This document shows positions 1 through 25,050 of a DNA stretch of 64,000 bases, piece by piece (the first letter of the stretch is position 1; each line of letters opens with the position of its first letter). The stretch spans positions 5,521-69,520 of the forward strand of contig CAWJJO010000004.1 of assembly GCA_963843285.1 (NCBI GenBank), in the 5' to 3' direction. The position numbers and the translations under genes are program-made. Under the pieces are notes generated by a model that searched no databases, was not told where the DNA came from, and worked only from the letters and a program-made list of their open reading frames with translations. The DNA comes from an uncultured bacterium (GTDB lineage Bacteria; Acidobacteriota; HRBIN11; JAKEFK01).

Positions 1-372
1 TCCGCTGGAGGAGGCAAATGGTACAGCGATGCACTGCTAAGACTTCGCTCAGGGGATCGAATCTTCGCCTACATAAAAGGTGTAGGTTATGTTGGTTACG
101 GGGAAGTTACTTCCGAAAGCACCATGGCGAAGGATTTCAGAATCAACGATAGGCCATTATTGGGTTTACCGCTCAAAGTACCTGCGATCAGGCATGATGC
201 AGATAACCCTGAGTTATGTGAATGGGTCATCGGAGTGAAATGGGTGCTGAATTTCAATCGCGAAAAAGCACGGAAATTTCAAGGAATGTTTGCAAATCAA
301 AATATCGCTTGCAAGCTTCGCGATGAGCGCACGCTAACCTTTCTTAAGACCGAGTTTCAAGTTGATAAATAG
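1..372 (+). CDS. hypothetical protein, C-terminal part (ORF enters from upstream of window); possible PUA/EVE-like domain
   Basis: Frame 1 is open from nt 1 (SAGGGKWYSDALLRLRSGDRIFAYIKGVGYVGYGEVTSE...) and is in frame with ORF 124..372. The GD-x-IF-x-Y...G.G.GEV pattern resembles EVE/PUA-like beta-barrel proteins. Tentative. Confidence 0.35.
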   Translation, partial: SAGGGKWYSDALLRLRSGDRIFAYIKGVGYVGYGEVTSESTMAKDFRINDRPLLGLPLKVPAIRHDADNPELCEWVIGVKWVLNFNREKARKFQGMFANQNIACKLRDERTLTFLKTEFQVDK

Positions 373-600
373 CTAGAGTCTGATGGTAGTAGGTTAAAAT
401 TGGAAAACACAAGAATGAACCAAACCGTAAAACCGACATTCCTCATGGGTCGCGGGTCTCAACTCCTCGATTGCTTGAAACTTGGGGAAAAATTTTTTAG
501 AAGGCCTGCTTCACAAGTCGGACTCTTTCCGGGCTACATGAACGGCTTGATGATCCTCCTTGATTTACGGCTAAGGGAACGGTAACAATAAAAGAAGACT

Positions 601-3156
601 ATGCGAATTACGGATTATCACGCCAAGTATTTTGCATACGAGTTAACCAAACATTTCCCATCAGATTCGGTCGACAAGCTTGCTGCTGCTCTCGCCGCTG
701 CTGAAGTCGATCTGAATCCTCATCAAATCGACGCCGCGTTGTTCGCCTTCAAATCTCCACTTTCAAAAGGTGCTTTATTGGCCGACGAAGTCGGTCTTGG
801 CAAAACGATTGAAGCCGGGCTCGTGATTTCGCAAAAATGGGCAGAGCGCAAGCGTCATATTCTGGTTATCACTCCCTCGAACTTGCGCAAGCAATGGTAT
901 CAGGAGATGACCGAAAAATTCTTCCTACCTTGCCGGATCCTCGAGACGAAATCCTATAACGTATCTGTAAAAAACGGCCGATTGCAACCCTTCGATACTC
1001 CCGATATTGTGATCTGCTCGTATCAATTTGCAAGAAACAAACAAGACGACGTTCGGTCGACGTCATGGGATCTAGTGGTTATTGATGAAGCACACCGCCT
1101 ACGAAACGTTTACAAACCTTCAAATATCATCGCGAATACTTTAAAAACTGTCCTCCAGGGGAACAACAAACTGCTTTTGACTGCAACTCCCCTCCAAAAC
1201 TCACTTCTTGAGTTGTACGGGCTGGTGAGCTTCATCGACGAGCATACATTTGGGGATCTTAAGAGTTTCAGGGAACAATTCGCCAATCTCAATCAAGACC
1301 AGGTTTTCGAAACTCTAAAATCGCGGTTGAAGCCAGTGTGCCATAGGACGTTACGTCGGCAGGTCAAAGCGTACATCAACTACACAAACCGGTTACCGAT
1401 GCTGGAACACTTTACTCCGGAAGAGAGTGAGGATCGGCTTTACAATCTTGTTTCAGAGTATTTGCAGCGCGAAAATCTTCAAGCACTTCCAGTGAGCCAG
1501 CGGACTCTAATGACTCTTGTCCTGCGCAAATTGCTTGCGTCATCAACTTTCGCAATCGCAGGAGCCTTGAATTCCTTGTCCAAACGGCTGAAAGCGAAAT
1601 TAGGAAAGACGCGACCGCCGGAGACAGTCCCGGAGGAGTTACAACAGGATTACGAATCGCTAAACGACACTGCGGAGGAATGGGCGGAAGAAGAAGAGGC
1701 TCCGGCAATTACTGAAACCGACCGTAGCGCGATTCAGCTGGAAATTGCGGACCTTGAAGCTTTCATGAGCCTGGCTACTTCCATAGATCACAATGCAAAA
1801 GGTAACGCGCTGCTGAAGGCCCTCGGAATCGCCTTTGCCAAGGCAAACAAAATGGGGGCCGAACAGAAAGCCATTATCTTTACCGAATCTCGAAAGACTC
1901 AAGACTATCTTCTTCGTTTGCTTGCTGACAGCCCCTATTCTGAAGGTATTGTTCTTTTCAACGGCTCAAACAATGATAGTCGGTCGAAAGAGATTTATTC
2001 CAACTGGTCAAGTCGCTATCAAGGAACCGATCACATAACAGGTTCAAGGACGGCTGATATGCGGTCGGCGATCGTTGACTACTTCCGAGAAGAGGGTCGT
2101 ATCATGATCGCTACAGAGGCGGGAGCGGAGGGCATCAATCTTCAATTCTGTTCATTGGTTATTAATTACGATCTGCCATGGAATCCTCAACGAATAGAGC
2201 AGCGGATAGGCCGTTGTCATCGGTACGGACAAAAGCACGATGTCGTTGTTGTGAATTTTCTGAATGAGAAGAACGCCGCCGATAAAAGAGTCTACGAATT
2301 ACTGGAACAGAAATTTCAACTTTTTGAAGGTGTTTTCGGTGCTAGTGATGAAGTGCTTGGAGCTATAGAATCAGGCGTGGATTTTGAAAAGAGGATTGTT
2401 GCGATATATCAAAAATGCAGGAAAGCTGAGGAAATACAAGCGGCATTTGATCAGCTTCAACTGGAGTTGAGCTTCGAAATAAACGAATCCATGAAAAAGA
2501 CAAGACAAAAGCTGCTAGAGCATTTTGACGATGAAGTTCGGGAAAAACTAAGGGTTCGGGATGCGGATTCAAAAAATTCACTAAATCGGTTCGAGCGCTT
2601 TCTAATGGATCTCACGCGGCACGAGTTGCACGAATATGCTGATTTTTCGGAAGATTCAAGATTCTCGCTCAAAGAACAACCCTTTAAGGACCTCGCGACA
2701 GTTATTCCTTTAGGAATCTATCAGTTGCCACGACGTTCCGGGGAGGCACATACCTATCGACTGAATCATCCTCTCGCCGAAGCTGTGTTGCAGCAGGCCA
2801 AAAATCGTGAGTTATTACCGGCCGAGATCGAATTCATATACGCAGAGCATGAGGGCAAGATAAGTATTTTGGAACCTCTCATCGGGAAATCGGGCTGGCT
2901 GAGGATATCAATGCTGACGATCGATTCTCTCGATCAGTCTGAGGATTTTGTGATCTTTGCGGCACAGATGGATGATGGTCAGATACTGGAGCAGGACATT
3001 GCGGCACGCTTAATGACTTTACCCGGACATTGCCCTGACAACTCCGCAGTAGACTCACCAGCGTTTCTTGAGTCTCTTGTCGAGCACCGAAAAGCAACTA
3101 TTCAGCGGGATATTTCCGAGAAGGAATGCGAAATTCTTCGAATTAGAAGCCGATAA
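601..3156 (+). CDS. SNF2-family (Swi2/Snf2) DEAD/DEAH-box helicase
   Basis: 851-aa ORF with motif I LADEVGLGKTIEAG, motif II VIDEAHRLRN, motif VI QRIGRCHRYGQ and a helicase C-terminal domain. Its 3' end overlaps the next ORFs. Confidence 0.85.
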   Translation: MRITDYHAKYFAYELTKHFPSDSVDKLAAALAAAEVDLNPHQIDAALFAFKSPLSKGALLADEVGLGKTIEAGLVISQKWAERKRHILVITPSNLRKQWYQEMTEKFFLPCRILETKSYNVSVKNGRLQPFDTPDIVICSYQFARNKQDDVRSTSWDLVVIDEAHRLRNVYKPSNIIANTLKTVLQGNNKLLLTATPLQNSLLELYGLVSFIDEHTFGDLKSFREQFANLNQDQVFETLKSRLKPVCHRTLRRQVKAYINYTNRLPMLEHFTPEESEDRLYNLVSEYLQRENLQALPVSQRTLMTLVLRKLLASSTFAIAGALNSLSKRLKAKLGKTRPPETVPEELQQDYESLNDTAEEWAEEEEAPAITETDRSAIQLEIADLEAFMSLATSIDHNAKGNALLKALGIAFAKANKMGAEQKAIIFTESRKTQDYLLRLLADSPYSEGIVLFNGSNNDSRSKEIYSNWSSRYQGTDHITGSRTADMRSAIVDYFREEGRIMIATEAGAEGINLQFCSLVINYDLPWNPQRIEQRIGRCHRYGQKHDVVVVNFLNEKNAADKRVYELLEQKFQLFEGVFGASDEVLGAIESGVDFEKRIVAIYQKCRKAEEIQAAFDQLQLELSFEINESMKKTRQKLLEHFDDEVREKLRVRDADSKNSLNRFERFLMDLTRHELHEYADFSEDSRFSLKEQPFKDLATVIPLGIYQLPRRSGEAHTYRLNHPLAEAVLQQAKNRELLPAEIEFIYAEHEGKISILEPLIGKSGWLRISMLTIDSLDQSEDFVIFAAQMDDGQILEQDIAARLMTLPGHCPDNSAVDSPAFLESLVEHRKATIQRDISEKECEILRIRSR

Positions 3157-3457
3157 ACTGGATGGTTGGGCCGACGATCTAAAGATCGCCCTAGAGCGTG
3201 AAATAAAAGAACTTGATCGTCAAATCAAAGAAGCGCGGCGTGCGGCTACGGTAGGCGTGTCACTCGAAGAAAAGCTCGATGCCCAGAAGCAGATCAAGTC
3301 GTTGGAGTTTCAGCGTCACAACAAGCGAAAATCACTGTTCGATGCCCAGGATCAGGTGGATAAAAAGAGGGAGGAACTGATTGAGAGAATTGAAGCAAAG
3401 CTGCAGCAACGGACAGATTTAAAACCGCTGCTTACCGTCCGATGGCGAATTCGATGA
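3068..3457 (+). CDS. 129-aa coiled-coil ORF (TTG start), possibly the frameshifted C-terminal extension of the SNF2 helicase
   Basis: Frame-2 ORF overlapping the helicase 3' end by 89 nt and the next gene by 16 nt. Charged heptad-like sequence (IKELDRQIKEARRA...). The frame-1 helicase tail (ISEKECEILRIRSR) looks non-native. Confidence 0.35.
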   Translation: MSLLSSTEKQLFSGIFPRRNAKFFELEADKLDGWADDLKIALEREIKELDRQIKEARRAATVGVSLEEKLDAQKQIKSLEFQRHNKRKSLFDAQDQVDKKREELIERIEAKLQQRTDLKPLLTVRWRIR

Positions 3458-5268
3458 GTTCTGATCTTCCTATTGAGATTCAGCAACTCCGGCCATCCCT
3501 ACATGAGCTCTTTACTGGGAAGTTGCCTGAATCCACCTCTGGATCTGAGGAGGAAAAAGAAAGGAATTTTCTGAGTCGTGCGCTTGGCGCATATTCGATC
3601 CACAAACTGGCAGGGGCTTCAATAGAAGAGTCTGTCTCATCGGTTGTGGATGCAGGTGGAGACGGAGGCATCGATTGCATCTTTTACGCAGCAACATCAC
3701 AAACACTCTGGGTGGTCCAATCAAAGTTCATCGCGGACGGCCGTGGAGAACCATCCTTGGCAGATGTAACTAAATTCAAAACTGGCCTTGAAAATTTATT
3801 ACAAGGGAATTTCGCAGCCTTCAAAGACAACTCGTATTGGCAGAAAATAATTCCCCGGCTGGAAATAATATTCAAAGTTTCGTCATTACAAGTTCGCGCT
3901 GTTCTTATTTACTCCGGAACAGCTGTTGTTTCCAGCGATCGCCGGGCGCTGTTCCTCGAACTAAAACGTCGGTTCTCTCCGGAATCAGATTATTTCGGAC
4001 ATCAGACGTATAATCTTACCAGCGTTCACGATTGGATAACGGGGACCGATCAGGGGCCCGGCGTCGAAAAACTCGAGTTGGTTCTGATTAAGCCCGGTTG
4101 GGTGACGGGTCCCTATGAGACAGTATTCGGGTTGGTGTCACTGACTGATCTTGCTAGACTTTATGGGCAATACGGGAAGCGATTGATTGCCGCAAATATT
4201 CGAGGATTCAGAGGAACAACGGATGTTAACCTTGAAATAATAACTACGGCAAAAGATGAACCAGCAAATTTCTTTTACCTTAACAACGGGCTTACAGCAT
4301 ACTGTGAGCGCCTTGAGGTTCATAACCTTGACAGAGCAAACGCCGAGTCGAAAAGAGTGACAGCTTATGCTCTGTCAATCGTTAACGGTGCTCAAACCCT
4401 AGGTTCAGTGGGTGAGGCCCTAGCACCAACCAACATCGGACACGACGGCTTTGTGTTTCTAAAGATAATTTCATTGGAGCGTTGCGACAATGATCGTGAA
4501 TTCGCCGGTCGAATTACTCGAAGCACGAATTTTCAGAATCAAATCGGTCCGAAAGATTTCGCAGCGCAACAGCCCGAACAAGAACATATCGCGAAGCAAC
4601 TCAGACTTTCCGGGATTACATATCACTACAAACCTGCCGAAGATGTTCCATCGCCAGATGCGACCAATTTCACAATGGATGAAGCAACTACAGCGGGCGC
4701 ATGCCTTACACAGCAGAACGATTGTGATTTGTATGCCCGAGCTTTGGCGAACAGGCAATCTCTTTTATCGATGGATGAGATTTTTCCGGAAGAACCGTTT
4801 CGATCCAGATATTCGCGAGTGTTCGTTTTTGATCGATCTGGGCGTACAGTTTGGAGAGCTGTGCAAACGCAAAGGCTGGTGATCAGAACAATGCAGGACA
4901 GCGGCAGTGCGAGCACAGGCGTACGAAAAACCTTTTTTGAAAACGCTCGCTGGCTCGTACTGAACGCGGTATATCTGAAGCTACGCCCTGAGCAGGGCGA
5001 CACGCTGGGCCTTACTCCGGACGAAGAGGTTGCAATCACAAAAGCAGCGCTCGATTTTGCCGAAATGCTGTTTTCAGCGTCCGAAGCTAAAGGATTTGTT
5101 TCACGCCGCACTGATACGGCAAGCGGAATGGATGTTTATGAACAGCCTCGCCACTTCCGGTCAGTTTTTGCGACATCAGCTGACTGTCAAATTCTACGTA
5201 ACGAACTGCTAAAAAGAATTAATGAAGGAAGTTCCCCTGCTTCGGAATCAACAACTGTCACTATTTGA
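3442..5268 (+). CDS. AIPR-like abortive-infection-type protein with N-terminal Mrr-cat PD-(D/E)xK motif
   Basis: 608 aa. GGDGGIDCIF...VVQSKF matches the Mrr catalytic signature D-GGID...QxK. The AIPR family assignment is from memory, not searched. Confidence 0.5.
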   Translation: MANSMSSDLPIEIQQLRPSLHELFTGKLPESTSGSEEEKERNFLSRALGAYSIHKLAGASIEESVSSVVDAGGDGGIDCIFYAATSQTLWVVQSKFIADGRGEPSLADVTKFKTGLENLLQGNFAAFKDNSYWQKIIPRLEIIFKVSSLQVRAVLIYSGTAVVSSDRRALFLELKRRFSPESDYFGHQTYNLTSVHDWITGTDQGPGVEKLELVLIKPGWVTGPYETVFGLVSLTDLARLYGQYGKRLIAANIRGFRGTTDVNLEIITTAKDEPANFFYLNNGLTAYCERLEVHNLDRANAESKRVTAYALSIVNGAQTLGSVGEALAPTNIGHDGFVFLKIISLERCDNDREFAGRITRSTNFQNQIGPKDFAAQQPEQEHIAKQLRLSGITYHYKPAEDVPSPDATNFTMDEATTAGACLTQQNDCDLYARALANRQSLLSMDEIFPEEPFRSRYSRVFVFDRSGRTVWRAVQTQRLVIRTMQDSGSASTGVRKTFFENARWLVLNAVYLKLRPEQGDTLGLTPDEEVAITKAALDFAEMLFSASEAKGFVSRRTDTASGMDVYEQPRHFRSVFATSADCQILRNELLKRINEGSSPASESTTVTI

Positions 5269-5270
5269 AT

Positions 5271-6920
5271 ATGTCATCTCTAAAAAAGCAAAAGCTCGAA
5301 TTGACCTGGATCGGCAAAGAAAATCGACCAAAGCTTGAGCCTCGTATCTTACTAGAAGATCCAGAGAAGTCCTACCATGCAAAACATAGAGTGAACAACG
5401 GGGACTTATTCGACAATCGACTTATCTTTGGCGACAACTTGCTTGCTCTCAAGGCTTTGGAACAGGAATTTTCCGGTAGAATTAAATGCATTTACATCGA
5501 CCCTCCTTATAATACAGGAAGTGCTTTCGAACATTACGATGACGGCGTGGAACATTCACTATGGCTTGCCTTAATGCGAGACCGACTAGAAATTCTCAGA
5601 AGGTTGCTTTCATATGAGGGTTCACTATGGATTAATCTAGACGATAACGAGGCGCATTACTGCAAAGTAATCTGCGACGAAATATTCGGTAGGGACAATT
5701 TTCTTGGGAATGTAGTTTGGGAAAAAACTGATAGCCCGCGAATGGATGCGGAATTCTTCTCTATTCGCCATGATCATATAATCGTTTATGGCAAAGATCG
5801 ATCAAGGACATCTTGGAACAGGTTGGTAACAGACACCTTACCAGCTCATTACGACAAAACAGATGAATTCGGCCGCAGGTACTACCTAAAACCATTAAGA
5901 GCCATGGGCGGTCAAGGCGACAGCCGCTCTGCACGTCCAACACTGTATTTTCCATTAGTCGCCCCTGATGGGTCACAAGTATACCCGAAACGTCAAGATG
6001 GGACCGATGGGGCCTGGCGGTGGACTGCTAAGAAGATCGAGGACGAACACTTACGAATCGAATGGGTTCACGGTAGAAACGGGTGGACACCGTATTTCCG
6101 CATTTTCGCTGACTCTAGTATAGGAAGACCAGCGGAAACCATCTGGTCACATAGTGAGGTTGGAAGCAATCGCACTTCAAAAGCCGAGATCAAACGACTA
6201 TTCCCAGATATGATTCCATTTGCGACTCCAAAGCCCGAAAAGCTGTTGCGGCGGATATTGACCATAGCATCAAATCCTGGTGACTGGATTTTGGACTCAT
6301 TCGCGGGATCCGGGACCACAGGTGCAGTTGCGCACAAAATGAATCGACATTGGATTATGGTTGAGTTGGGAGATCATTGCCATACACATATTATCCCACG
6401 CCTTATGAAGGTAATCGAGAATCAAGACTCCGGAGGAATAAGCAAAGATGTGGATTGGAAAGGAGGCGGAGGTTTTCGGTACTATCGACTCGCTCCTTCC
6501 CTGCTTGAGAAGGATAAGTGGGGGAATTGGGTCATCAACAAACAGTATAACGCTACGATGCTGTCCGAGGCATTGTGTAAGCTGGAGGGATTTCAATATG
6601 CACCGAGCGACACAATCTATTGGCAACACGGATATTCCACTGAGCAAGATTTTATCTACATTACTACGGCGAATCTAAGTCACGAACAGCTCATGCAGTT
6701 AAGTGAAGAAGTGGGGCCTCAGCGCACACTGTTGGTTCTTTGCACGGCATTCCGCGGAAGGGGGGAATATCCAAATTTGACTGTTAAAAAAATTCCGAAG
6801 CAGGTCCTATCACGTTGCGAATGGGGGCATGATGACTATAGCCTTCGCGTAGAGAATCTTCCAAAAGCCCCCGCCGGACCTGGACAACAGGATCTTTTCG
6901 CTGAAGCGGGAAACCAATGA
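5271..6920 (+). CDS. mod: Type III-like R-M DNA methyltransferase (Mod), beta-class N6A/N4C MTase
   Basis: Motif IV IYIDPPYNTG lies near the N-terminus and motif I FAGSGTTGAVA ~270 aa downstream (beta order, TRD between). ATG at 5271 (ORF track used TTG 5265). Stop overlaps the res start. Confidence 0.8.
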   Translation: MSSLKKQKLELTWIGKENRPKLEPRILLEDPEKSYHAKHRVNNGDLFDNRLIFGDNLLALKALEQEFSGRIKCIYIDPPYNTGSAFEHYDDGVEHSLWLALMRDRLEILRRLLSYEGSLWINLDDNEAHYCKVICDEIFGRDNFLGNVVWEKTDSPRMDAEFFSIRHDHIIVYGKDRSRTSWNRLVTDTLPAHYDKTDEFGRRYYLKPLRAMGGQGDSRSARPTLYFPLVAPDGSQVYPKRQDGTDGAWRWTAKKIEDEHLRIEWVHGRNGWTPYFRIFADSSIGRPAETIWSHSEVGSNRTSKAEIKRLFPDMIPFATPKPEKLLRRILTIASNPGDWILDSFAGSGTTGAVAHKMNRHWIMVELGDHCHTHIIPRLMKVIENQDSGGISKDVDWKGGGGFRYYRLAPSLLEKDKWGNWVINKQYNATMLSEALCKLEGFQYAPSDTIYWQHGYSTEQDFIYITTANLSHEQLMQLSEEVGPQRTLLVLCTAFRGRGEYPNLTVKKIPKQVLSRCEWGHDDYSLRVENLPKAPAGPGQQDLFAEAGNQ

Positions 6921-9604
6921 ATCGGGAAGTCAACCCGATTTCAGGACGATTGAGCCTTCGCCCCCCACAAAGACGATCTCTGGAAATTCTTGATCGGATC
7001 ATCGAGATTTTTCCGCCCAAAAAGAATTCCGACATGAAATTGGCTCTTGAAATTATTCGGTCTGAATTCCCTTCTGTTACCGATTTTGAAAGAGATTTTC
7101 CATCTTTATGCTTTGCGCTGGCAACGGGAGTAGGTAAAACGAGATTGATGGGCGCCTTCATCAGCTATCTCTATCTTGCCCATGGATTTCGGAATTTCTT
7201 TGTAATGGCGCCGAATCTCACGATCTACAACAAATTGATCACAGATTTTACGCCAAACACACACAAGTATGTTTTCAAAGGGATAGCCGAGTTCGCAACA
7301 GACCCGCCTGCGTTGATCACTGGAGACAATTATGAATCGATGGCCGGATCCTTTGATTACGAATTAAGGCTTTGCCGAATCAACATCTTCAACATTTCCA
7401 AAATTAATTCTGAGGTGCGCGGAGGAAAGTCTCCGCGAATCAAAAGGCTTTCTGAATACATTGGACAAAGCTATTTTGATTTTCTAGCACAGCTTGACGA
7501 TTTGGTTCTTATTATGGATGAATCTCATCGATATAGAGCGACTGCCGGCATACGTGCAATCAACGAGCTTAGACCAGCCCTAGGCCTCGAGCTGACGGCA
7601 ACACCATTTGTTGAAACTGCACGGGGCGCAATCGCGTTTAAAAATGTTATTTACGACTACCCTTTAGCCAGGGCAATGGCTGATGGATTCGTTAAAGAAC
7701 CTGCCGTAGTTACGCGAAAAGATTTCAACGTTGGTGACATGTCGGCAGAGAAATTGGAACGAATAAAGCTTGAAGACGGTATTCGCCTACATGAAAGCGT
7801 CAAGGTCGAGCTGGAGACATTCGCAAGAGAAACGAGCAATCCCGTAGTAAAACCGTTTTTACTCGTGATCGCCCGTGATACAACACATGCTTCACAACTG
7901 TTGCAGATGATACAGTCTGACAAATTTTTCGAAGGCCGTTACAGGGAGATGGTCATCCAGGTTGATTCAAGCAAGACAGGGGCTGAGGAAGAACTAATGA
8001 TTGAGCGCCTTTTAAAGGTCGAGCATAACGACGATCCGACAGAAATCGTTATCCATGTCAATATGCTAAAGGAAGGCTGGGACGTCACAAATCTGTACAC
8101 CATTGTTCCTCTTCGACCGGCAAATGCCAGAATCCTGATTGAGCAATCCATTGGCCGTGGTTTACGCCTGCCCTTTGGAAAACGGACCGGTGTAAACTCC
8201 ATTGATCGCTTAAACATCGTCGCGCACGATCGCTTCCAGGAAATCATCGATGAAGCCAGAAAACCCGACTCTGCTATTCGCCTCCAAGCTCTGGTGATCG
8301 ATAAAGAGGAGCTAGAACGAAAACATGTGACACTAATTACGCAGACTAAGCTGGCGAATAAACTCGGAATAATCCCCGATCAACTAAGCGACACGAGCGT
8401 CGTGATTGGAAAAAATACTGCTCCCATTTTTGAGAACGAGGAAGAACAGAAGGTTGCTCAAATTACCTATGAAGTAATTCGAAAGTTGGAAAATCGTCCG
8501 GAAATAATACCGTCTCTTTCTGACTTACAAAAACCTGAGATTCAGGCCGCGTTGGTCAAGGCCGTTGAAGAGAAATACCAGCCATCCCAACTGGAGCTTG
8601 AAGAAAAGCCGCGGAAGATCGACATTGCCGCTGTAGTCGCCCGAACCTCGGAGACAATAATGCGGGAAACGATCAACATTCCACGCATTCTGGTTGTACC
8701 AAAGGGAGAAGTCAGATCCGGATTCAAGTCTTTTCAACTTAGGCTCGAGTCGTTGCGCTATCCCGCTGTTTCCGAAGAACTCTGGGTACAGTATTTACGA
8801 ACCGGAGGGACTGAGGTTGTGGCAATCGGAAAGTCGATCACGGAAGAGTTACGGCTTGAAGATTACATAGTGAGTGGACTGGTTGATTTCGATGATATCT
8901 CCTACGACCAGCATTCCGATTTACTCTACGAACTTGCAGCTCAAGCCGTTAACCACTTCATGAGTTATCTATCGGAAGAAGAAACACGCAAAGTCTTGAG
9001 CTGTCATCAGCGAGAAATCGCAAAGTTTATTCATGCGCAGATGCAAGAACATTACTGGGAGGAAGCGGTTGATTATGAAGTAAAGGTGAGTAAAGGCTAC
9101 ACAGAGTTGAAAGCGAGCGCATTTACAAGCTCCGTGAACGAAACACCGCTTGAATATACTTCCTCACCAGAAGACAAAAGTAACATGTCAAAATACCTAT
9201 TCGTCGGGTTTAAGCGATGCCTATACCTTCTTCAAAAGTTTGATTCGGATTCCGAACGAAAATTAGCGGTTATTCTGGATCGTGACAGTCTCAAATGGTT
9301 CAGACCTGCAAAAGGGCAGTTCCAAATTTTCTATCGACACGGATCCGACCATCTCGAATACCAGCCGGATTTCGTTGCTGAGACGCGCGATGCAATTTAC
9401 ATGTTAGAGGCAAAAGCACGGAATGAGATGGAAGACGCCGTGGTTCTGGCAAAAAAGAATGCAGCCGTCAAGTGGTGTAGAAACGCCACAGAGTATGCCG
9501 CGAATTCTGGAAGCAAACCTTGGAAATACGTGCTAATTCCACATGATGGAATATCTGAAAATAACACACTGAATTCCTTAGAAAAAAGATTCAGCGCCAC
9601 GTAA
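6917..9604 (+). CDS. res: Type III restriction enzyme Res subunit (SF2 helicase + C-terminal PD-ExK nuclease)
   Basis: 895 aa. Walker A ALATGVGKTR, DEAH-like IMDESHRY, C-terminal YQPDFVAETRDAIYMLEAKA (PD...EAK). ATGA overlap with mod. Confidence 0.8.
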   Translation: MNREVNPISGRLSLRPPQRRSLEILDRIIEIFPPKKNSDMKLALEIIRSEFPSVTDFERDFPSLCFALATGVGKTRLMGAFISYLYLAHGFRNFFVMAPNLTIYNKLITDFTPNTHKYVFKGIAEFATDPPALITGDNYESMAGSFDYELRLCRINIFNISKINSEVRGGKSPRIKRLSEYIGQSYFDFLAQLDDLVLIMDESHRYRATAGIRAINELRPALGLELTATPFVETARGAIAFKNVIYDYPLARAMADGFVKEPAVVTRKDFNVGDMSAEKLERIKLEDGIRLHESVKVELETFARETSNPVVKPFLLVIARDTTHASQLLQMIQSDKFFEGRYREMVIQVDSSKTGAEEELMIERLLKVEHNDDPTEIVIHVNMLKEGWDVTNLYTIVPLRPANARILIEQSIGRGLRLPFGKRTGVNSIDRLNIVAHDRFQEIIDEARKPDSAIRLQALVIDKEELERKHVTLITQTKLANKLGIIPDQLSDTSVVIGKNTAPIFENEEEQKVAQITYEVIRKLENRPEIIPSLSDLQKPEIQAALVKAVEEKYQPSQLELEEKPRKIDIAAVVARTSETIMRETINIPRILVVPKGEVRSGFKSFQLRLESLRYPAVSEELWVQYLRTGGTEVVAIGKSITEELRLEDYIVSGLVDFDDISYDQHSDLLYELAAQAVNHFMSYLSEEETRKVLSCHQREIAKFIHAQMQEHYWEEAVDYEVKVSKGYTELKASAFTSSVNETPLEYTSSPEDKSNMSKYLFVGFKRCLYLLQKFDSDSERKLAVILDRDSLKWFRPAKGQFQIFYRHGSDHLEYQPDFVAETRDAIYMLEAKARNEMEDAVVLAKKNAAVKWCRNATEYAANSGSKPWKYVLIPHDGISENNTLNSLEKRFSAT

Positions 9605-9605
9605 C

Positions 9606-11284
9606 GTGAGGCATCTTGTTCATATGGACAAGTATTTAAAGATCAGAGATATGCATAGACGCCATCGTGGCCTATCAAAGGCCGTTGCAGATAGCTATCA
9701 AGAAGCCGCAGTTGTGTGCTTGAGCCGCCACCACAAGTCACCGGTCAGCGTTGACCTGACGGATAATGCAAACCAAACATCGTGTGCAATCCAATGGCGG
9801 AAGCCGGATCGTCGTACCATCGATGCTTGGGCGAACGAAACCGTTACAACTGAGGCAGGAGCATACGCTGTGTCATCGCTGCCGTTGAGTATCTCAGGAA
9901 TGTTTTTGCGGTACGTCGCGCCGAGACGGGAACGGGATCTGATTACTACATCGGCTTAGCGGGGTCTGGAATCATTGATCTTGAGGATTGTTTAAGACTT
10001 GAAGTTTCCGGGGTTAGCGATGGGGATTACAAAGAAGTTGCAAAGAGGTTGTCCCAAAAAGTGAGCCAGGCTCTGCGGGGTAAAAGCAGCCTACCAGCTA
10101 TTGCCGGAGTGATCGGCTTCAGTGCCAGAGTCATTATGGTCAGAGACGTTCGGGAGCCTCAATGAGTTGGGATTCCCACCACACCAAAAGTGAAGAGGTT
10201 GCTGGCCAGGCACAGGCAGAAGCAAGATCTTTGAATCAAAAAAAGGCAGAAGAGCTTTATCGCCTTGCCGCAAGCGAGGAAGAGATTGCCTAAGCGAAGT
10301 CCCGCCTGAAAAACAAAAAACACGTGGCATCACCGTTGTTAGTGCCGTCGCCCTATGGTACAAAGGCAAAAACTACGCCAAGGCTTCCCAAGTAGCCCAT
10401 CGTGAGCTTGCTAATGATCAACTCCCCGAATTCGCCAAAGATCAACTCAAGGAGCTTCTGCACTTCATTTGGTCGGCAGAATCAGCTGAGGAATCGGGAC
10501 TCAAATTCGCTCCTGGAGACGTGCTCGTTTCGATCAAAGGTGGAGAGGTAATTCACGGTGGAGCCCCACTTGACCTGATTATACAAAAAGTCGAAGCGAT
10601 AAAATCCTTCCTGTTTAGGATTGTGGAAATGCTTTTGAAACGGCCTATCCGTCGCCGAGGAGGACCGCCGCTAGAGGTTCTATCAATGTTTCGCGCATGG
10701 CTTATTCAGGTACCTGCAGGTAGTTATCAATTTGCTGTGCGTGTTGAGCAGCCTCCACAAATGGACTTGTGGGAACAGCCCCCGGAGATTGGTCAAATTA
10801 CTGAAACGTTTTTTACAGTGTTAAATGCAGCGACTGCTGATCCCGAAAGGCAGTTACAGAATGTTGTACCCGATGAAGGATACAGAGATGTCTTTCTCAG
10901 CCTTTCACGCAACCTTGCCCCTACCGGTAAAAGCTACGAGTGGGTCGAATACGCGATGGGGGAAATCCGTCTCAACCCATTGTAGTCCTTTCGTCCGAGA
11001 ACCGGCAAACACTGAATATGACCTTACGAAATCTGCCGGTAAGAGCATTCATAGCTTTAGATGAGATCATTCAGGTCCGAGGGGTTCTGCGGGCGGTGCA
11101 CCTTGACCAAGATTGGCTAGAAGTGGCTACGATCGATCCCGCTAATGTTCGACATCTAAGAATCGACGATGCAGGAGAGGCTTTAGATGATGTTATCGGC
11201 CCCATGGTTAATCGAAGCGTTACAATAGAGGCGCTTCATCGAGGGTCAAAGTATTTATATAGGGATATTCAACTTGACGAGTGA
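9606..11284 (+). pseudogene. ORF fragments in alternating frames (9606-9959 f3, 9854-10163 f2, 10194-10985 f3, 10940-11284 f2): probable decayed gene(s), function unknown
   Basis: Protein-like translations continue across frame switches and there is no single intact ORF. Could also be sequence error. Confidence 0.3.
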
Positions 11285-15921: not shown

Positions 15922-16404
15922 TCAATTGCGATCTCTTTCCTGAAGAATCAGCTCCAGTTCGGCGATCACTTCCAAATCTTTTGGGCGGCCAACAGCCCGT
16001 TTCACTTCGATTAACTTCTCAAGATTGAGGCAAAGACAGGAGACACCAAAAAGTTCGATGGGGATGGAATGAGGCACCAAATCTTCAAACGTTCCACCTC
16101 CGGTAATCTCGCCCAACAAATCTAGATTCCCGAGGGAAGTGGTCAGCGTAAAGTTGAGTCCTGAGGCCAAAGTCTCAACATCCCATCGAAACGGTAACCC
16201 CGGAGGTGCGCCTCGCAAATATGGTTGATAAGGCTTCAGCGCGTCCACCATACGTTCCATATTTTGCGGACTGCGATCATAAACGATGTCGAGATCGTTT
16301 GTTAATCTGGAGGATCCATGTGCAATCGCCGCCGCTCCCCCAACCAGAATAAAACGTGCACCCGTGTTTACGAGTAATGGGATGAGTGTTTTGAACTGAA
16401 TCAC
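15922..16404 (-). CDS. pol-beta superfamily nucleotidyltransferase (MNT-like)
   Basis: GS-x10-DLD motif (HGSSRLTNDLDIV). 160 aa. Confidence 0.6.
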   Translation of the reverse strand: MIQFKTLIPLLVNTGARFILVGGAAAIAHGSSRLTNDLDIVYDRSPQNMERMVDALKPYQPYLRGAPPGLPFRWDVETLASGLNFTLTTSLGNLDLLGEITGGGTFEDLVPHSIPIELFGVSCLCLNLEKLIEVKRAVGRPKDLEVIAELELILQERDRN

Positions 16405-18618: not shown

Positions 18619-21600
18619 TTAAGATCGGATCCAGAGTTTTTCGTAAACGACACTGGGAAGGGAGAAGCGCATTTCCAATCCTTCTACTTCCGCACGCGCG
18701 AACAAATAACGCTGCTCATGAAAAAGAGGAAGCGCCAACGCCTTGTTCCTGAGGATCTCTTCGATTTCGCGATAAATGGCCTGGCGGACTTTGCGGTCCT
18801 GTTCTGCGCGACCTCGTTCAATCAGCCGGTCCAATTCAGGCGAGCTGCAAAAAGCATCCAACATTCCGTCACCTGTCTCAAAGATCTCTGCAAAAGTAGA
18901 AGGATCCGGATAATCAGCATGCCACCGCACAAGAGCCAAATCCGCATTTCCTGTTTTGAGAAAGTCGGCAGACGCTTTATTCTCCAGTACTTTGATCCGA
19001 ATTCCTTTTTCGTTCAGCATGGCGATCAAATCTTGCAGCAGAGCCGAATACGTACTTTCGTAAATGGGATGGATCATGCAGGTCAGTTCCAGATCCCCTT
19101 TTCCTTTCACACTGGAGGGTAATCCTGTCCTGCGTGTAGGCTCATATCCAAGTAAGCCCGGCGGGGTCAAGCTGTAAGCCGCGATTCCCAAACGGCCTAC
19201 ACTCTGACGCACCAACCGGGTTACGTCCACCGATTCCAGAATTTGCCGTCGCAAAGCTGGATCGGTCATCGCTCCGGAATGAGAGTTCATCACCAGAAAA
19301 TAGGTGGAAAGAGTAGGCATTTCCGCGTAATGAGCGGCAAGAGTCGGATCACGGCGTAAGGTTGCAACATCTGATGGAAGCAAGTCAGTAGCCACTGAAA
19401 AGTCTCCGCTGCGGAACCCGCTCAAGATTTCTTGTGGCGGCACGCCAAAAGTGAATCTGAGCCCATCACTTTTGGGCAGTCCGGTACGCCAATAATCAGG
19501 ATTCGCTTCCAGTTCCAGCAGTTTTTCCGGCTCATACCGGATGAGGCGGAAAGGTCCCGTCCCGATACACCCATCTCGCCAGCTTCCCGAAAACAGAGTG
19601 CTCCCTTCCGGTATGACGGAGCAACAGGGATGGGTCAACATTGCCGGCAACAGCGAAAGAGGGCGGGTGAGGTCGATTACGAATTCCGTGGCGGAAATGA
19701 TCTTGAATCCAGGAAGGTCGTTGGATTCACCTTTGATCATCGAAGTGGCTCCACGAATTGCAGACAAATATCCGCGACGCGGAGATCCGCTTTTGCGCAG
19801 GAGTTGTTCAAAGGAGTAACGAACGTCGCGCGAAGTCAGGCGCCGTCCATCTTGAAAACGTACGTTTTCGCGCAACTTGAAGTGGAATCTTTTTCCTCCT
19901 TCCCCGGAAGAAAACTCAGATGCGAGCCACGGAATGATTCCCCCTTGCTTTTCGACGGTCAACGTTTCGAAAATCATGGGAGTCACTTCCCCCTCTACGA
20001 TCAGAAAATTCATCGAAGGGTCTATACTTTGTGGTCGCGTGGTTTGAGGGACTCGCACAAGCCCTCCTTCCCGTTTTTTGCCCGGAACCAAACCTTCTTC
20101 TTCGATTCTTCCGATTTCCGCGTACCGGACAAATGGCGCGCTGCTTTGAATCGCGAGTCCTCTGAGGTTGTGAGCCGCCACACGGTAATCGATTTCATAA
20201 AAGAGCGGCAAAAACGTTCCTTTCTCCATCAGCAGCTCTTCCATCTGTCGATACAACTTTTCTCTTTTCTCAGGGCGACTTTCCACGCGCGCCTGTTCCA
20301 TGAGCTCATCGATTTGATCGCTGGAGAAATATTTCCGAAAATTGCCGGCCTTGGAATAAAAAAGAGGATAAATGAAATTGTCCGGATCATCATAATCGGC
20401 GATCCAACGCGTGAGCAACACATCGATATTTTCATTGTTGTCCCAGGCCTCGCGATACGAGCTCATATCCGGCGTCACGATCGAAGTTTCAACACCCAGC
20501 TCTTCCCAGGTTTTCAACAACGCTCTGATCAAAGCGCCGTAGCGGTCCTGGAGAATCGGATGGACGGCAGCTCTTAACCGGATCGGTAAGGATAGACCGG
20601 TTGTTTGCAATCGTTCGCGAGCCTGATCGATGGAAATGCTGATATGTCTTCGGCCCGGATCGTGACCGAGCAGTCCGGGTGGCAGCAAACCCTCAGCAGG
20701 CTGCGCAAAGCGCCCCAGTGTGCGCCACACCAGATCATGCGTTTGAAGCACTCCGCATAATGCTTCGCGCAATGCAGCTACTTTTCCAAAGGGTCCGGAT
20801 GAGTTGAACACAAGAAAACAGGTGCTCTTTTTCGGAACTTCTACAAATCCAGCTTGAATCAACGGATCGCGAAGGATTTCATCCAGATTTTCCGGCAACA
20901 GATCGCGGACAACATCGAATTCACCTTTCTTGAAACCTTCCGCCATCTTCTTTGTGCTGATGGAAGTTCGAAACTCGACAGTATCCAGGAAAGGCGCGCG
21001 TCCTTTCCAGTAATGTTCGTTTTTCTGCAAAATGATTTTACCGGGTTCCACCGAATCGATCCGGAATGGACCTGTGCCCACCAGGTTTCCATGGGTGTCA
21101 TCGCAGGTGATCGCTGCCCGCGCATCCGTTAGCAGCGAGGGATAAATCAACAGCGGCTCCTCCAGTTGCACGGAGAACGAAGTGTCCGACTGCACCTGGA
21201 TTCCGGTGACCTCATTTTGGGAACCAGCGAGGAATTCCCGGACTCCCACGATGGAACCGAATGCTGCCGCCATATTTTCCCCGCTGACGCGGATCGCTTT
21301 TTCAAATGAGGATTTCACATCTTTCGCAGTGAGCGTGCGGCCATCGTGAAGAGATAATCCCTGTCTGAGAGTAAACACAAATAGTTTTCCATCTTCACGA
21401 GCTTCCCAGTTGTCGCACAAAAACGGGACCGGATGCCCGCGTTCATCTGTGCTCACCAGAGTTTCAAAGATCGTGGCATGAACTTCTGCTTCTTCCACAA
21501 GCGAAATGTTGGCAGGATGCAACGCGGAAATGGGAGCAGGAAGAGCCACAACAATCTTGCCCCCCTGCGCAATTTTTCCTTCTTTCTTCGGCTGCGGCGC

Positions 21601-24600
21601 GAGGACTTCCAATTCATGCAAATACTGCTTCGCCTTTTCGTACTCGCCCCGTAGATTTGCAACCGTGCTTCCGAGCGAAAGCAATCTGTGCAGACCGCCG
21701 GTTTCACCGCTGGACTTCGCAACCTGGATTCCTTTGTCCACCCATTTCCCGGTTTCCTCGAATTTCCTGCTCTCCCAGGAAGTTTCTGAGAGTTGAACGA
21801 GCGCATTCGCGAGATGCGCTTGATGTTTCTCCGTTTCAAACAGGGAAACCGCCTGTTCTAATTCCCGTAATGAATCCTCCAGATTTCCGGCCATCCGGTA
21901 TGCCTCTGCCAGAAGCATTCTGGCTTCCCCCTCTCTGGAACGATCCATCCCTTCTTCTTCATCGCCGAAGAAATCGAGAACGGTTTTTGTTGTGCGTATG
22001 GCATCTTCCGTGCTGAAAGCATGGAGAGATTTTCGCGCAAATTTTAAACCGTAGTCGATCACTTTTTCAGGAACGTCGGCATTCGAATAGTGATGAATCA
22101 ATTCCGGGTACACCCGCTCCAGCCGCCCCTGGTTCCGGCGCTCCAGCTCTTCAGCGTATTTGCGATGAAGGGACCGGCGTTTGCGGCGTGAAAGCTCCGC
22201 GTAGAGCACATCGCGAATCACGCCGCTGGAAAACATCAGACGGTCGCCGCGCGACTCCCGTTCTTCTTGCAACAAACCGTCACGGAGTAACTGATCGAGC
22301 GCATCTTCTACGTCCTTGCCTTCGGCAAGCAGCTCCAGATCCCTGAAATCAAAACTTTTCCCGATCACCGATGCGAGGGAAAGGACATCCTTCCGGTCCT
22401 GAGGCAGCCGCTTGATCCGTTTTTCGATCACTTGCTGGATTGTTTCCGGCAAAGCTCCTGAAGAAAAAGCGGCATCACTCGAAATGGTCCAGGCTCCCGT
22501 GTCATCCTTCGCGACCCCGCCCGAATCGATCAACGATCGAACAAGTTCCTGCGTAAAGTATGGATTTCCCTCCGTCGCTTCAAACAATCGTTCGGCGAAC
22601 CGGTCATCCAGAGTGGTTCCTGTCAGGATGGTTTCGAGAAACAGTCGATGTTCGGCAGTGGAAAAAGGTTGCAGATGCATCAGTAAAAATCGCCTGTCGC
22701 TGCGAAAGCTATCCAGAAGCTGGTGCAGCAGATGCCTCTTATCCACTTCGCCGCTGCGATACGTTCCTACCACCAGAGTCGGCGTTGTGCTGAGCCGGCG
22801 CACCAGATATTCCAACGCATCAATCGAAATGTCTACGTTATGCAGATCTTCAAAGAAAATGACCAGCGGCTTTGCGCCTCCGATCCGGATAAAAGAACGG
22901 GCGAGCAGATCAAAGATATAAGTGCGGTCTTCAATCTTTTTTGTTTCTGCTCCGGGCGTAATCTTTCGATCCGAAGTTAACTCGATCTCTGCGAGAACGG
23001 GAAACAGAGAGACGAGATCAGAAGCAAGGTCGGAGAAATCCACCGGACCGGAAGAAGAGGTTGCCTTTAAGTGAAAATATTCCTGGATGACTTCACAAAA
23101 CCCCTGATAGGGGAAGGCCCGGTCCTGTTCTGCGAAACGACCGTGAAGAACACGGATGTGGCGCGCGCGCGCGAGCCGTTCCAGCTCATCCAGCAATCTG
23201 CTCTTGCCGATTCCTGCTTCACCGCCGACCACCACAAACTGGCATTCACCGGCTGCTGCCAGGTTCAACCGGTTTTGTAAATCGGTGAATTCTTTTTCTC
23301 GATCCACAAAAGGAGATTGCACGGCCTTTTGAATATGACTGGACAACCTGCCGATCATGGACAGCTTTTGCGCGCGTTCGCTGTCGCGCAGCTTCGAACG
23401 AAGCTTCATCAAAGATTCCGTTAATTCCCGCGCGCGCTGCGGACGTTTGGTCCGGTCCTTTTCCAGACAGCTCATCACAATGCGTTCCAGCTCCTCCGGC
23501 ACATCGGCGCCAAGCAAACGAGGAGCCGACGGAATTTCGTGAGCGATGCGGTACAGGACCGACTGAATTTCTCCTGCGAAAGGCGCTTCTCCCACCAGAC
23601 ACTCATACAGCACCGTTCCCAGAGAATAAATATCGGAACGTCCATCCAGGTCTCCCTGCGATAATTGCTCAGGACTGAGATAGGCGACGGTGCCCACTAA
23701 CATCCCTGTTTTGGTGAGATGGCTTTGAGTCGAGGACATGGCAAGACCGAAGTCGGTCACACGCACACGCGCTCCACCCGTAGCCGTTTCTCCCACCGAT
23801 ACGAGAATATTTTCCGGCTTGATGTCGCGATGTACGACCCCTTTCGTGTGGCTGTATTCGAGAGCATCCGATACCTGAATACCGATGTCGATGACATCTC
23901 CTAAACTCAGAGAGCGGTCGCGCAGCAAAGCTCGAAGACTCGATCCCGGAACGTACGGCATGACAAAGAACAGAGCTCCGGCGTGTTCGCCGATATCGTA
24001 TACGTTCACGATTGCCGGATGATCCATCTTCGCAACCACGCGCGCCTCTCGCTTGAAGCGTTCCACCGCGTCGGTGGAAAGAGCATCCGGAGTGATCACT
24101 TTGACAGCCACTTCGCGATCCAGCATCGGATCCCGGGCGAGGTAAACCACACCCATTCCGCCACGGCCCAGCTCGCGAATAATCTGATACCGGTTGGCAA
24201 AGCGAAGCGCCCTCAGCGCATTGGCCAGCTCCATAGCGGAGGAGTAGCGCTGGTTCCTGTCCTTGACCATGGCGCGGCGAAGGATCGGATCCAGTCCCTG
24301 CGGCATCAGAGCGGAAACGGAGCTCGGAAGCGGAGGATCGGTTGTGGCAATTTCATGCAAGATCGAAAGAACACTGGGACCGCTGAAAGGAACTTTTCCG
24401 GTGGCTGCTTCATAGAGAACGGCTCCCAAGGAGAAAATATCGGTGCGGAAATCGAGCGGTTCGCCTCGCGTTTGCTCCGGGGACATGTACGCCACGGTTC
24501 CTACAATCATTCCTGTTTTCGTGAGTTTACTGACGGTTTGCTCACCGCTTACCTTTTCATCCTCAACCTGGACCACCTTCGCAAGGCCGAAATCGAGTAT

Positions 24601-25050
24601 TTTGGCCTGCCCGTTGGGTGTTACTAATATGTTCGAAGGTTTGATGTCCCGGTGGATCAGACCCGCTGAATGCGCCGCTGCAAGACCATCTGCAATCTGC
24701 GATCCAAGATCCAGAAGCTGCGACAATTCCAGGGGACCTCGCTGCAACAAGGATCTTAACGTTTCCCCTTCCACATATTCCATGACGATGAAATCCGCGC
24801 CATCAACCTCTTCGATGTTATAGATCGTAACGATGTTCGGATGATTCAGAGCGGATGCAGACCGCGCTTCCTGCAACAGACGCCGCTTCGCTGTGGCATC
24901 CTGTGAAGCGGAGGAGGGCAAGAACTTGACCGCCACCTGGCGTCCAAGCTTGAGGTCCTGGGCTTTAAAGACTTCACCCATTCCCCCCTGCCCGATTTTT
25001 TCAAGAATGCGGTAATGAAGTATTTTCTGTTCGGGACCGGATGAATTCAC
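18619..25050 (-). CDS. giant multidomain signalling protein: two tandem Ser/Thr kinase domains, AAA/STAND NTPase, TPR, two SBP_bac_5 (OppA/DppA-like) solute-binding domains
   Basis: 2143 aa. Kinase 1: [31 protein letters not shown]. Kinase 2: [27 protein letters not shown]. Walker [13 protein letters not shown]. Two C-terminal modules with the family-5 SBP pattern (GTGPFR...KNEHYW). No TM segment evident. Confidence 0.85.

Follow-up and report, generated by a model that had tools for sequence, protein, structure and literature searches.

A probable SNF2-associated Type III restriction-modification operon with exchangeable AIPR cargo in an uncultured Acidobacteriota bacterium

We analyzed a 64,000-nucleotide (nt) stretch of DNA from an uncultured bacterium of the Acidobacteriota (assembly GCA_963843285.1, contig CAWJJO010000004.1, positions 5,521 to 69,520 of the forward strand), hereafter called the window, with a focus on a gene cluster near its start. 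The cluster combines the Mod and Res genes of a Type III restriction-modification (R-M) system with genes for an SNF2-family ATPase and an AIPR-family protein. Four large open reading frames (ORFs), all on the plus strand, fill positions 601-9604 of the window as follows (aa, amino acids).

601-3156, plus strand, SNF2-family ATPase ORF, 851 aa (Pfam SNF2-rel_dom, 2.4e-37; Helicase_C, 9.7e-21)
3442-5268, plus strand, AIPR-family protein, 608 aa (Pfam AIPR, 5.3e-26)
5271-6920 from an ATG, or from a TTG at 5265, plus strand, Type III Mod, ~550 aa (Pfam N6_N4_Mtase, 3.9e-46)
6917-9604, plus strand, Type III-like Res, 895 aa (Pfam ResIII, 1.9e-20)

The initial annotation, made from the sequence alone, had described four co-oriented, tightly packed genes resembling an operon, and both the ORF map and the gene junctions bear this out. 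The hidden Markov model searches that it had proposed recovered SNF2-rel_dom and Helicase_C, AIPR, N6_N4_Mtase and ResIII. The ATGA at 6917-6920 is common to the Mod stop and the Res start, as had been noted, and the TGA of the AIPR gene (5266-5268) is separated from the Mod ATG at 5271 by 2 nt, not by the 3 nt given earlier; the alternative TTG at 5265 overlaps this stop. In relatives, 4-nt overlaps of the form NTGA were found at 20 of 32 SNF2-AIPR, 9 of 29 AIPR-Mod and 17 of 25 Mod-Res junctions. The locus had also been called richer in AT than its flanks. Indeed, its GC content was 46.5%, compared with 52.5% for the remainder of the window, and was the minimum among all 9-kb windows, while the GC content at third codon positions (GC3) was 43-47% in the genes of the locus and 52-65% in the other window genes; the low GC and GC3 fit horizontal acquisition of the operon. 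Promoter and terminator scans of positions 300-10600 returned counts not above those in shuffled sequence and are therefore uninformative on internal promoters of the operon. A search for tandem and dispersed repeats found no phase-variation tract and no flanking repeats that mark an insertion.

Judged by sequence, Mod and Res have Type III architecture, with Res assigned to a distant family. Mod is a beta-class N6-adenine methyltransferase in which DPPY (aa 77-80, positions 5499-5510) lies ahead of FAGSG (aa 344-348; FAGSGTT at 6300-6320). It matched the PADLOC model MTase_III PDLC03636 at 1.3e-226, and its closest solved relative was EcoP15I Mod (4zcf_A, 1.6e-33). In the conservation profile, Mod aa ~150-310 were conserved at 30-40%, compared with 70-80% outside; this hypervariable part is the target-recognition region, as expected for a sequence-specific, self-marking methylase. 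Res carries the following motifs.

7121-7141, plus strand, GVGKT
7517-7528, plus strand, DESH
9365-9415, plus strand, C-terminal PD...EAK nuclease motif

Residues P817, D818, E831 and K833 of Res were invariant in 19 sequences, as were GVGKT and DESH. Res matched the PADLOC model REase_III PDLC03648 at 1.2e-205, and the best match of its profile in the PDB was EcoP15I Res (4zcf_C), weak at 1.3e-5 and extending over ~70 residues.

The SNF2 gene, treated as a single continuous helicase gene in the initial annotation, is in fact interrupted by a frameshift, and its parts are arranged as follows.

601-3120, plus strand, N-terminal part of SNF2, 840 codons in the original frame, DrmD-like paralog
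784-807, plus strand, SNF2 motif DEVGLGKT
1084-1095, plus strand, SNF2 motif DEAH
2200-2232, plus strand, SNF2 motif QRIGRCHRYGQ
3121/3122, plus strand, 1-nt insertion (extra A, GAG-A-AGG), after which the annotated ORF stops at 3154-3156
3123-3457, plus strand, conserved C-terminal coiled coil of SNF2 in the +1 frame, inside a 129-aa ORF at 3068-3457

Full-length SNF2 homologs have a single ~950-aa ORF that runs through ...IQRDISERNAKFFE... where the window carries the extra A, and the homolog reading ...IQRDISERNAKFFEAEADKLDGWADDLK... was uninterrupted in one ~950-aa frame in the four full-length homologs compared. Removal of one base (nt 3121) gives a clean 951-aa SNF2 ORF with no other stops. 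The translation of the coiled-coil ORF shared 54-74% identity with homolog C-termini and aligned to positions 764-862 of the 872-position PADLOC DrmD model. Its TGA at 3455-3457 overlaps the AIPR ATG at 3454 (ATGA) and lies 16 nt past the alternative ATG at 3442, so that the overlap with the AIPR start claimed for a helicase/coiled-coil ORF holds for the coiled-coil ORF at 3068-3457 and fails for the helicase ORF, which ends at 3156. A real mutation and an assembly error are equally good explanations of the extra A, and the SNF2 gene in this genome is probably damaged. In this genome, the +1 frameshift would remove the SNF2 coiled coil and uncouple AIPR translation; SNF2 function would then be impaired here, unless the assembly is in error.

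Such damage could mean that the operon is a decaying remnant, with SNF2 a pseudogene and the operon being inactivated in this genome. The loss of a conserved 110-residue C-terminus together with the coupling to AIPR, the 851-aa truncated SNF2 product annotated in the deposited record (a 135.7-kb contig) and the split genes found also in several relatives from metagenome bins are in line with this. However, the lesion is a single one that removal of one base reverses, AIPR, Mod and Res remain intact and keep every motif, and a single-base error in a draft assembly accounts for the extra A just as well. We regard decay of the operon as rather unlikely.

With respect to family, the SNF2 protein matched the PADLOC DrmD model PDLC02619 at 3.6e-209. 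Against the NCBIfam model DISARM_DrmD_b, the window protein scored 709 bits and a full-length homolog (in L016) 694 bits, both below the equivalog cut-off of 950 bits, indicating that SNF2 is a DrmD-like paralog and not DrmD itself. The PADLOC BrxHI/HII models gave a secondary match only (1.2e-71). All catalytic motifs of SNF2, Mod and Res are preserved and do not vary among relatives. No domain of known kind was detected in SNF2 aa 660-840, and an AlphaFold2 (AF2) model of the protein reached a mean pLDDT of just 50.6, since its alignment contained sequences of 72-75% identity only, and was set aside as inadequate for a fold search. The suggestion of a methylation-aware helicase found no backing, since SNF2 showed no reader domain and its structural model was not usable. 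The SNF2 family is very large, with more than 8000 homolog clusters at E ≤ 1e-20, and the members listed are nearly all ~950 aa long.

In the AIPR gene, the following features were noted.

3454, plus strand, ATG, likely the true AIPR start; ATG at 3442 is the alternative
3655-3675, plus strand, GGDGGID, with QSK within 3712-3729, N-terminal PD-(D/E)xK motif
4276-4302, plus strand, central motif YLNNGLTAY
4378-4398, plus strand, central motif IVNGAQT

The protein matched Pfam AIPR (PF10592) over residues 251-400 with 92.4 bits, compared with a gathering cut-off of 25, and PADLOC models for AbiU (1.9e-22) and MzaE (1.5e-9). In the structural model, the protein is predicted to carry a FokI/Mrr-like PD-(D/E)xK (PD-QxK) nuclease domain, in agreement with the earlier call of an Mrr-cat protein, and residues D78, Q93 and K95 were invariant. 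The model also points to a ParB-like nucleoside triphosphate-binding domain, which is probably present, and IVNGAQT tentatively resembles the DGQQR motif of ParB-like domains. A sequence search of AIPR against solved structures gave no match. AIPR homologs of ~600 aa and 55-65% identity number in the hundreds and come from many phyla; distant AIPR genes (27-32% identity) adjoin a C5 methylase, NOV_C proteins or a Type I S subunit. By the Pfam description, genes of the AIPR family are known to be carried in R-M operons, and AbiU is a single-gene abortive infection (Abi) system in Lactococcus. In some four-gene loci, a second, divergent AIPR paralog with 26-29% identity directly follows the first (L007, 11956-13758; L030, 11816-13579; L038, 8496-10376).

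To describe how often the gene order recurs, we scanned with the AIPR alignment, taking one genome per species, and compared the resulting 47 loci with the window proteins by tblastn. The order SNF2-AIPR-Mod-Res was the same in 30 of 30 loci with enough flank, where SNF2 is in one frame including the coiled coil, and 12 further close AIPR relatives reach contig ends, with none contradicting the order. The synteny thus recurs: SNF2 and AIPR genes do accompany this Mod/Res pair elsewhere, contrary to the finding that the initial annotation had named as one that would refute it. Hosts included Proteobacteria, Cyanobacteria, Planctomycetota, Verrucomicrobiota, Bacteroidota, Acidobacteriota, Chloroflexota, Firmicutes and Deinococcota. 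Across 19 complete loci, distance matrices correlated between AIPR and Res (r = 0.88), SNF2 and Res (r = 0.83), and SNF2 and AIPR (r = 0.77), and correlations of Mod with any other of the genes were weak (r ≈ 0.3) because of the hypervariable central region of Mod.

The invariable order in these loci, the correlation of AIPR distances with those of Res and SNF2, the start/stop overlaps that flank AIPR on both sides in many loci and the recurrence of two divergent AIPR subfamilies in the same slot would suit an obligate four-component hybrid, in which the products of all four genes act as a single machine, with AIPR as an integral second cutter or sensor. The initial annotation had leaned this way, proposing a second Mrr-type nuclease that feeds into Type III restriction. 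Loci found from the Res side bear on this proposal, as follows.

A metagenome scan with the Res alignment gave 544 hits. Among the loci of the best 80 of these, 40 were informative, and 35 of the 40 have SNF2 upstream of Mod and Res. Res relatives at 40-56% identity retain SNF2, and in three loci (L092, L108 and L137) SNF2 directly abuts Mod. In the 35 loci with SNF2, the slot between SNF2 and Mod held AIPR-family genes in 14, other genes in 18 and nothing in 3; the 14 AIPR genes belong to at least two divergent subfamilies. Thus, 21 of the 35 loci have no AIPR gene, and an obligate four-gene unit finds no support in them. The hybrid is further disfavored by near-identical elements that exchange slot content, by non-AIPR cargo that is packed equally tightly, and by AIPR relatives in Type I, C5 methylase and Mza contexts, whereas co-divergence is expected of any genes co-inherited on one mobile operon. 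An obligate hybrid is therefore improbable in our judgement. SNF2 is the sole near-constant partner of Mod-Res. AIPR is facultative and lies outside the core, being the gene that most often fills the cargo slot between SNF2 and Mod.

The cargo other than AIPR in this first slot included SMC/ABC-like ATPases of ~770-1050 aa, GmrSD, a MORC-like GHKL ATPase, OLD-like AAA_15, IrrE/M78 with a helix-turn-helix (HTH) protein, an AAA+/subtilase pair, an Eco57I-like methylase and Bro-N. A second slot, between Mod and Res, is likewise variable and held YhcG/DUF1016, RhuM, Fic, Abi_2, Schlafen/AlbA_2 or AAA_21. In Ferrovum myxofaciens CP149478 (L239, 12918-22788), ~10 kb of defense genes occupy the first slot ahead of Mod, namely an AAA+/S8 peptidase pair, DUF2130, SIR2-HerA, KTSC and GmrSD. 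In three Thiobacillus-related elements (L241, L243 and L246), SNF2 shared 96-97% and the neighboring DUF2130 gene 91-93% nt identity, while the next ATPase genes were unrelated, the second slot held YhcG, Fic or RhuM, and the target-recognition domain (TRD) of Mod was swapped. These contrasts between conserved anchors are direct evidence of recent cassette exchange. The Thiobacillus-related elements also have a second SNF2-like gene (768 aa) and a DUF6094 gene upstream.

In loci found with SNF2 (≥43% identity, enough flank), an N6_N4 methylase adjoined SNF2 in 25 of 26. The same SNF2 clade (47-57% identity) pairs with at least two further Type III Mod/Res families on plasmids, PDLC03646/03654 on IncF plasmids of E. 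coli and Klebsiella and PDLC03634/03647 on plasmids of Cupriavidus, and on a Salmonella IncFIB plasmid the slot holds IS256 and an Abi gene. No other gene family was conserved outside the interval from SNF2 to Res in ~120 related loci, indicating that SNF2 and Res are the boundaries of the unit.

A small excisionase-type/MerR-like HTH ORF just upstream of SNF2 was recognized in 3 of 60 loci; it is present on enterobacterial plasmids and in a few other relatives. Examples are found at 6232-6432 in L129, 8769-9014 in L130, 8792-8992 in L128, 702-908 in L006, 2211-2651 in L090 and 564-851 in L125; in L129 and L130 the gene overlaps the SNF2 start, and the window is without such a gene. The product could be a controller protein. 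As so few loci show it, we rejected the idea that the system in the window includes a conserved fifth gene or HTH controller.

Taken together, we favor the view, which we consider probable, that horizontal acquisition brought in a Type III R-M operon with an SNF2-Mod-Res core and with AIPR as exchangeable cargo. The operon would belong to a large clade whose Mod-Res genes almost always follow a gene for a DrmD-like SNF2 ATPase with a C-terminal coiled coil. Several points weigh against this view. Within the AIPR clade of the window, AIPR is always present, has co-diverged with SNF2 and Res, and overlaps stop or start codons of both neighbors, so a functional tie of this AIPR subfamily to the core is possible; the recurrence of at least two divergent AIPR subfamilies in the slot likewise hints at some affinity. 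The Res-found loci are a best-scoring subset and not a random sample, and 5 of the 40 have no SNF2 within at least 6 kb upstream. Res relatives at ≤39% identity form sister clades of Mod-Res without SNF2, and these together with the SNF2-less loci indicate that Mod-Res is evidently able to work alone. Furthermore, Res is distant from the biochemically studied Res enzymes, scoring 25 bits against the canonical NCBIfam model PRK15483 (cut-off 564), and the role suggested for SNF2 is drawn only from analogy and linkage.

The loci and sister clades that lack SNF2 also fit a mere juxtaposition within a defense island, where SNF2 would be an independent defense or repair gene beside an ordinary Type III R-M system, with no interplay. 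Canonical Type III systems need Mod and Res only, SNF2 and Mod can be parted by up to 10 kb of unrelated genes, and in the window the frameshift affects SNF2 and leaves the other genes intact. On the other hand, order and orientation are fixed over many phyla and three Type III Mod/Res families, SNF2 directly abuts Mod in some loci and has co-diverged with Res, its clade is almost never seen without an adjacent N6_N4 methylase, and SNF2 and Res remain the outer boundaries while the cargo varies. Chance neighborhood of this kind appears quite improbable to us.

For the SNF2-Mod-Res core, the following mechanism may be proposed. As suggested by the Type III family, Mod would methylate an asymmetric site, and Mod-Res would cut unmethylated invader DNA via the Res ATPase and its PD-ExK nuclease. 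By analogy to DISARM class 1 (DrmD with DrmMI) and ARMADA (ArmA with ArmB), SNF2 might act alongside Mod-Res as a translocase on, or remodeller of, double-stranded DNA, for instance by clearing or loading it for restriction or methylation, with its coiled coil as a likely contact or dimerization element. Recombination between conserved anchors would exchange unrelated defense genes in both slots. AIPR would most likely be a separate, co-expressed second-line nuclease effector with an architecture comparable to that of GmrSD, and it appears separable because its relatives AbiU and MzaE act elsewhere. In other loci the slot is taken by GmrSD, a modification-dependent nuclease with a ParB-like domain, from which one may speculate that the slot covers phages escaping methylation-based restriction.

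A broader interpretation, which we put forward only tentatively, is that SNF2-Type III loci constitute a distinct and very widespread three-component system in which SNF2 is mechanistically required, and that the operon is a two-slot carrier of defense modules (AIPR, GmrSD, SIR2-HerA, ABC/OLD ATPases, Fic, RhuM and YhcG) exchanged between the SNF2, Mod and Res anchors.

The core was compared with known systems. Classical Type III enzymes (EcoP15I/EcoP1I, Mod2Res1-2) have the same mod-res order with a stop/start overlap, the same beta-class N6_N4 Mod with a central TRD, and a Res with a superfamily 2 (SF2) ATPase and C-terminal PD-ExK nuclease. Unlike them, the present operon has a ~950-aa SNF2 gene near-constantly upstream plus cargo slots, lacks simple-repeat phase-variation tracts, and encodes a distant Res without the PF19778 endonuclease-domain match of another SNF2-linked family. 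Type III systems hemimethylate an asymmetric site and need two unmethylated sites in inverse orientation for ATP-dependent cleavage. Defense genes are known to be nested in R-M and BREX operons, such as PrrC/RloC in hsd loci and BrxU/GmrSD in BREX. In the same way, unrelated defense genes (Abi_2, Fic, RhuM, YhcG/DUF1016, GmrSD, OLD/ABC ATPases) sit among the genes of a modification-based system here and differ between close relatives; what sets the present case apart is its scaffold, an SNF2-Type III operon in which two slots are defined.

DISARM class 1 shares the order of SNF2, DNA adenine methylase and helicase-nuclease effector, and DrmD is the nearest curated family of SNF2, coiled coil included. 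However, the methylase here is a Type III Mod (N6_N4_Mtase) and not DrmMI, and the effector is a Type III Res. DrmA, DrmB (DUF1998) and DrmC (PLD) were found neither in the window region (from nt 1 on) nor in ~120 related loci, confirming the earlier statement that DrmA/B/C and BREX markers are missing, which held at the locus and across those loci. We therefore rejected the DISARM label for want of DrmA/B/C and for the SNF2 score below the DrmD threshold, and the BREX label because no PglZ, BrxC or PglX is present among window genes 1-27754. In class 1 DISARM, almost all protection against phage Nami is lost when drmD and drmMI are deleted (bioRxiv 10.1101/2021.12.28.474362).

ARMADA consists of an ArmA SNF2 protein, an ArmB methylase, an ArmC YprA-like helicase-nuclease and ArmD (bioRxiv 10.1101/2025.09.15.676423; PMC13463889), and defense by ARMADA II needs all of armA-D, the SNF2 gene armA included (PMC13463889). 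Compared at the level of composition and SNF2 superfamily, it follows the same operon logic of SNF2 ATPase, methylase and SF2 helicase-nuclease. It differs in having a PglX-like ArmB and, as ArmC, a YprA/DUF1998 helicase with Vsr nucleases, and no UvrD-like ArmD is present here; the ARMADA label was rejected, as Res matches ResIII only and Mod is an N6_N4_Mtase. The AIPR protein matches the Pfam AIPR, AbiU and MzaE models and so resembles AbiU1 of Lactococcus and Mza. Its MzaE equivalog score of 43 bits is far below the cut-off of 1050, and the Mza label was rejected; in contrast to AbiU1/Mza, the AIPR subfamily of the window was found only in the SNF2-to-Mod slot.

Full-text literature searches turned up no account of a Type III system partnered by SNF2 or of its cargo slots, consistent with the earlier suspicion of an undescribed system. 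SNF2 next to Type III genes has annotation-level mentions only (PMC5608340, PMC12757443), and the presence of AIPR in R-M operons has been noted in general (PMC2292703).

The SNF2-Type III kind is very common yet unstudied. Existing tools label its parts as "DrmD" and "RM type III", so that the unit goes unrecognized. Type III enzymes are textbook two-subunit, ATP-triggered sliding nucleases, and the large SNF2-retaining clade over many phyla, which includes clinical IncF plasmids of E. coli, Klebsiella and Salmonella, points to a mode of Type III restriction that has gone unstudied. If so, the SNF2 motor might conceivably alter the way in which a Type III enzyme locates or handles its targets, and Type III R-M would be tied to the SNF2-plus-methylase theme of DISARM class 1, ARMADA and BREX type 3. 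The slots, being bounded by conserved anchors, offer a simple route to new defense genes and a view of their shuffling. The copy in the window is an ordinary member of the clade, with a probably damaged SNF2 gene.

Upstream of the operon, positions 1-372 (plus strand) encode the C-terminal end of a PADLOC PDC-S11 candidate defense protein (1.2e-20), with the frame open to the window start; the operon thus adjoins another candidate defense gene. The downstream genes are non-defense genes, including P450, M24 peptidase, H-NOX and kinases. A 117-aa ORF at 9606-9959 (plus strand), with a GTG start 2 nt past the Res stop and without a family match, had no counterpart among the 47 genome loci compared and is probably not a gene. 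Two ORFs at 10521-10985 and 10940-11284 (plus strand) overlap in different frames, neither with a Pfam match, and may be a second frameshifted gene, which would touch on the assembly quality and hence on the reality of the SNF2 frameshift. Further downstream, an ORF at 15922-16404 (minus strand) is weakly like AbiEii/DUF6036 nucleotidyltransferase, and a 2143-aa protein at 18619-25050 (minus strand) has two protein-kinase-domain, one AAA_16 and two SBP_bac_5 matches and adjoins a DDE_Tnp_1/DUF4372 transposase gene at 25181-26446 (minus strand).

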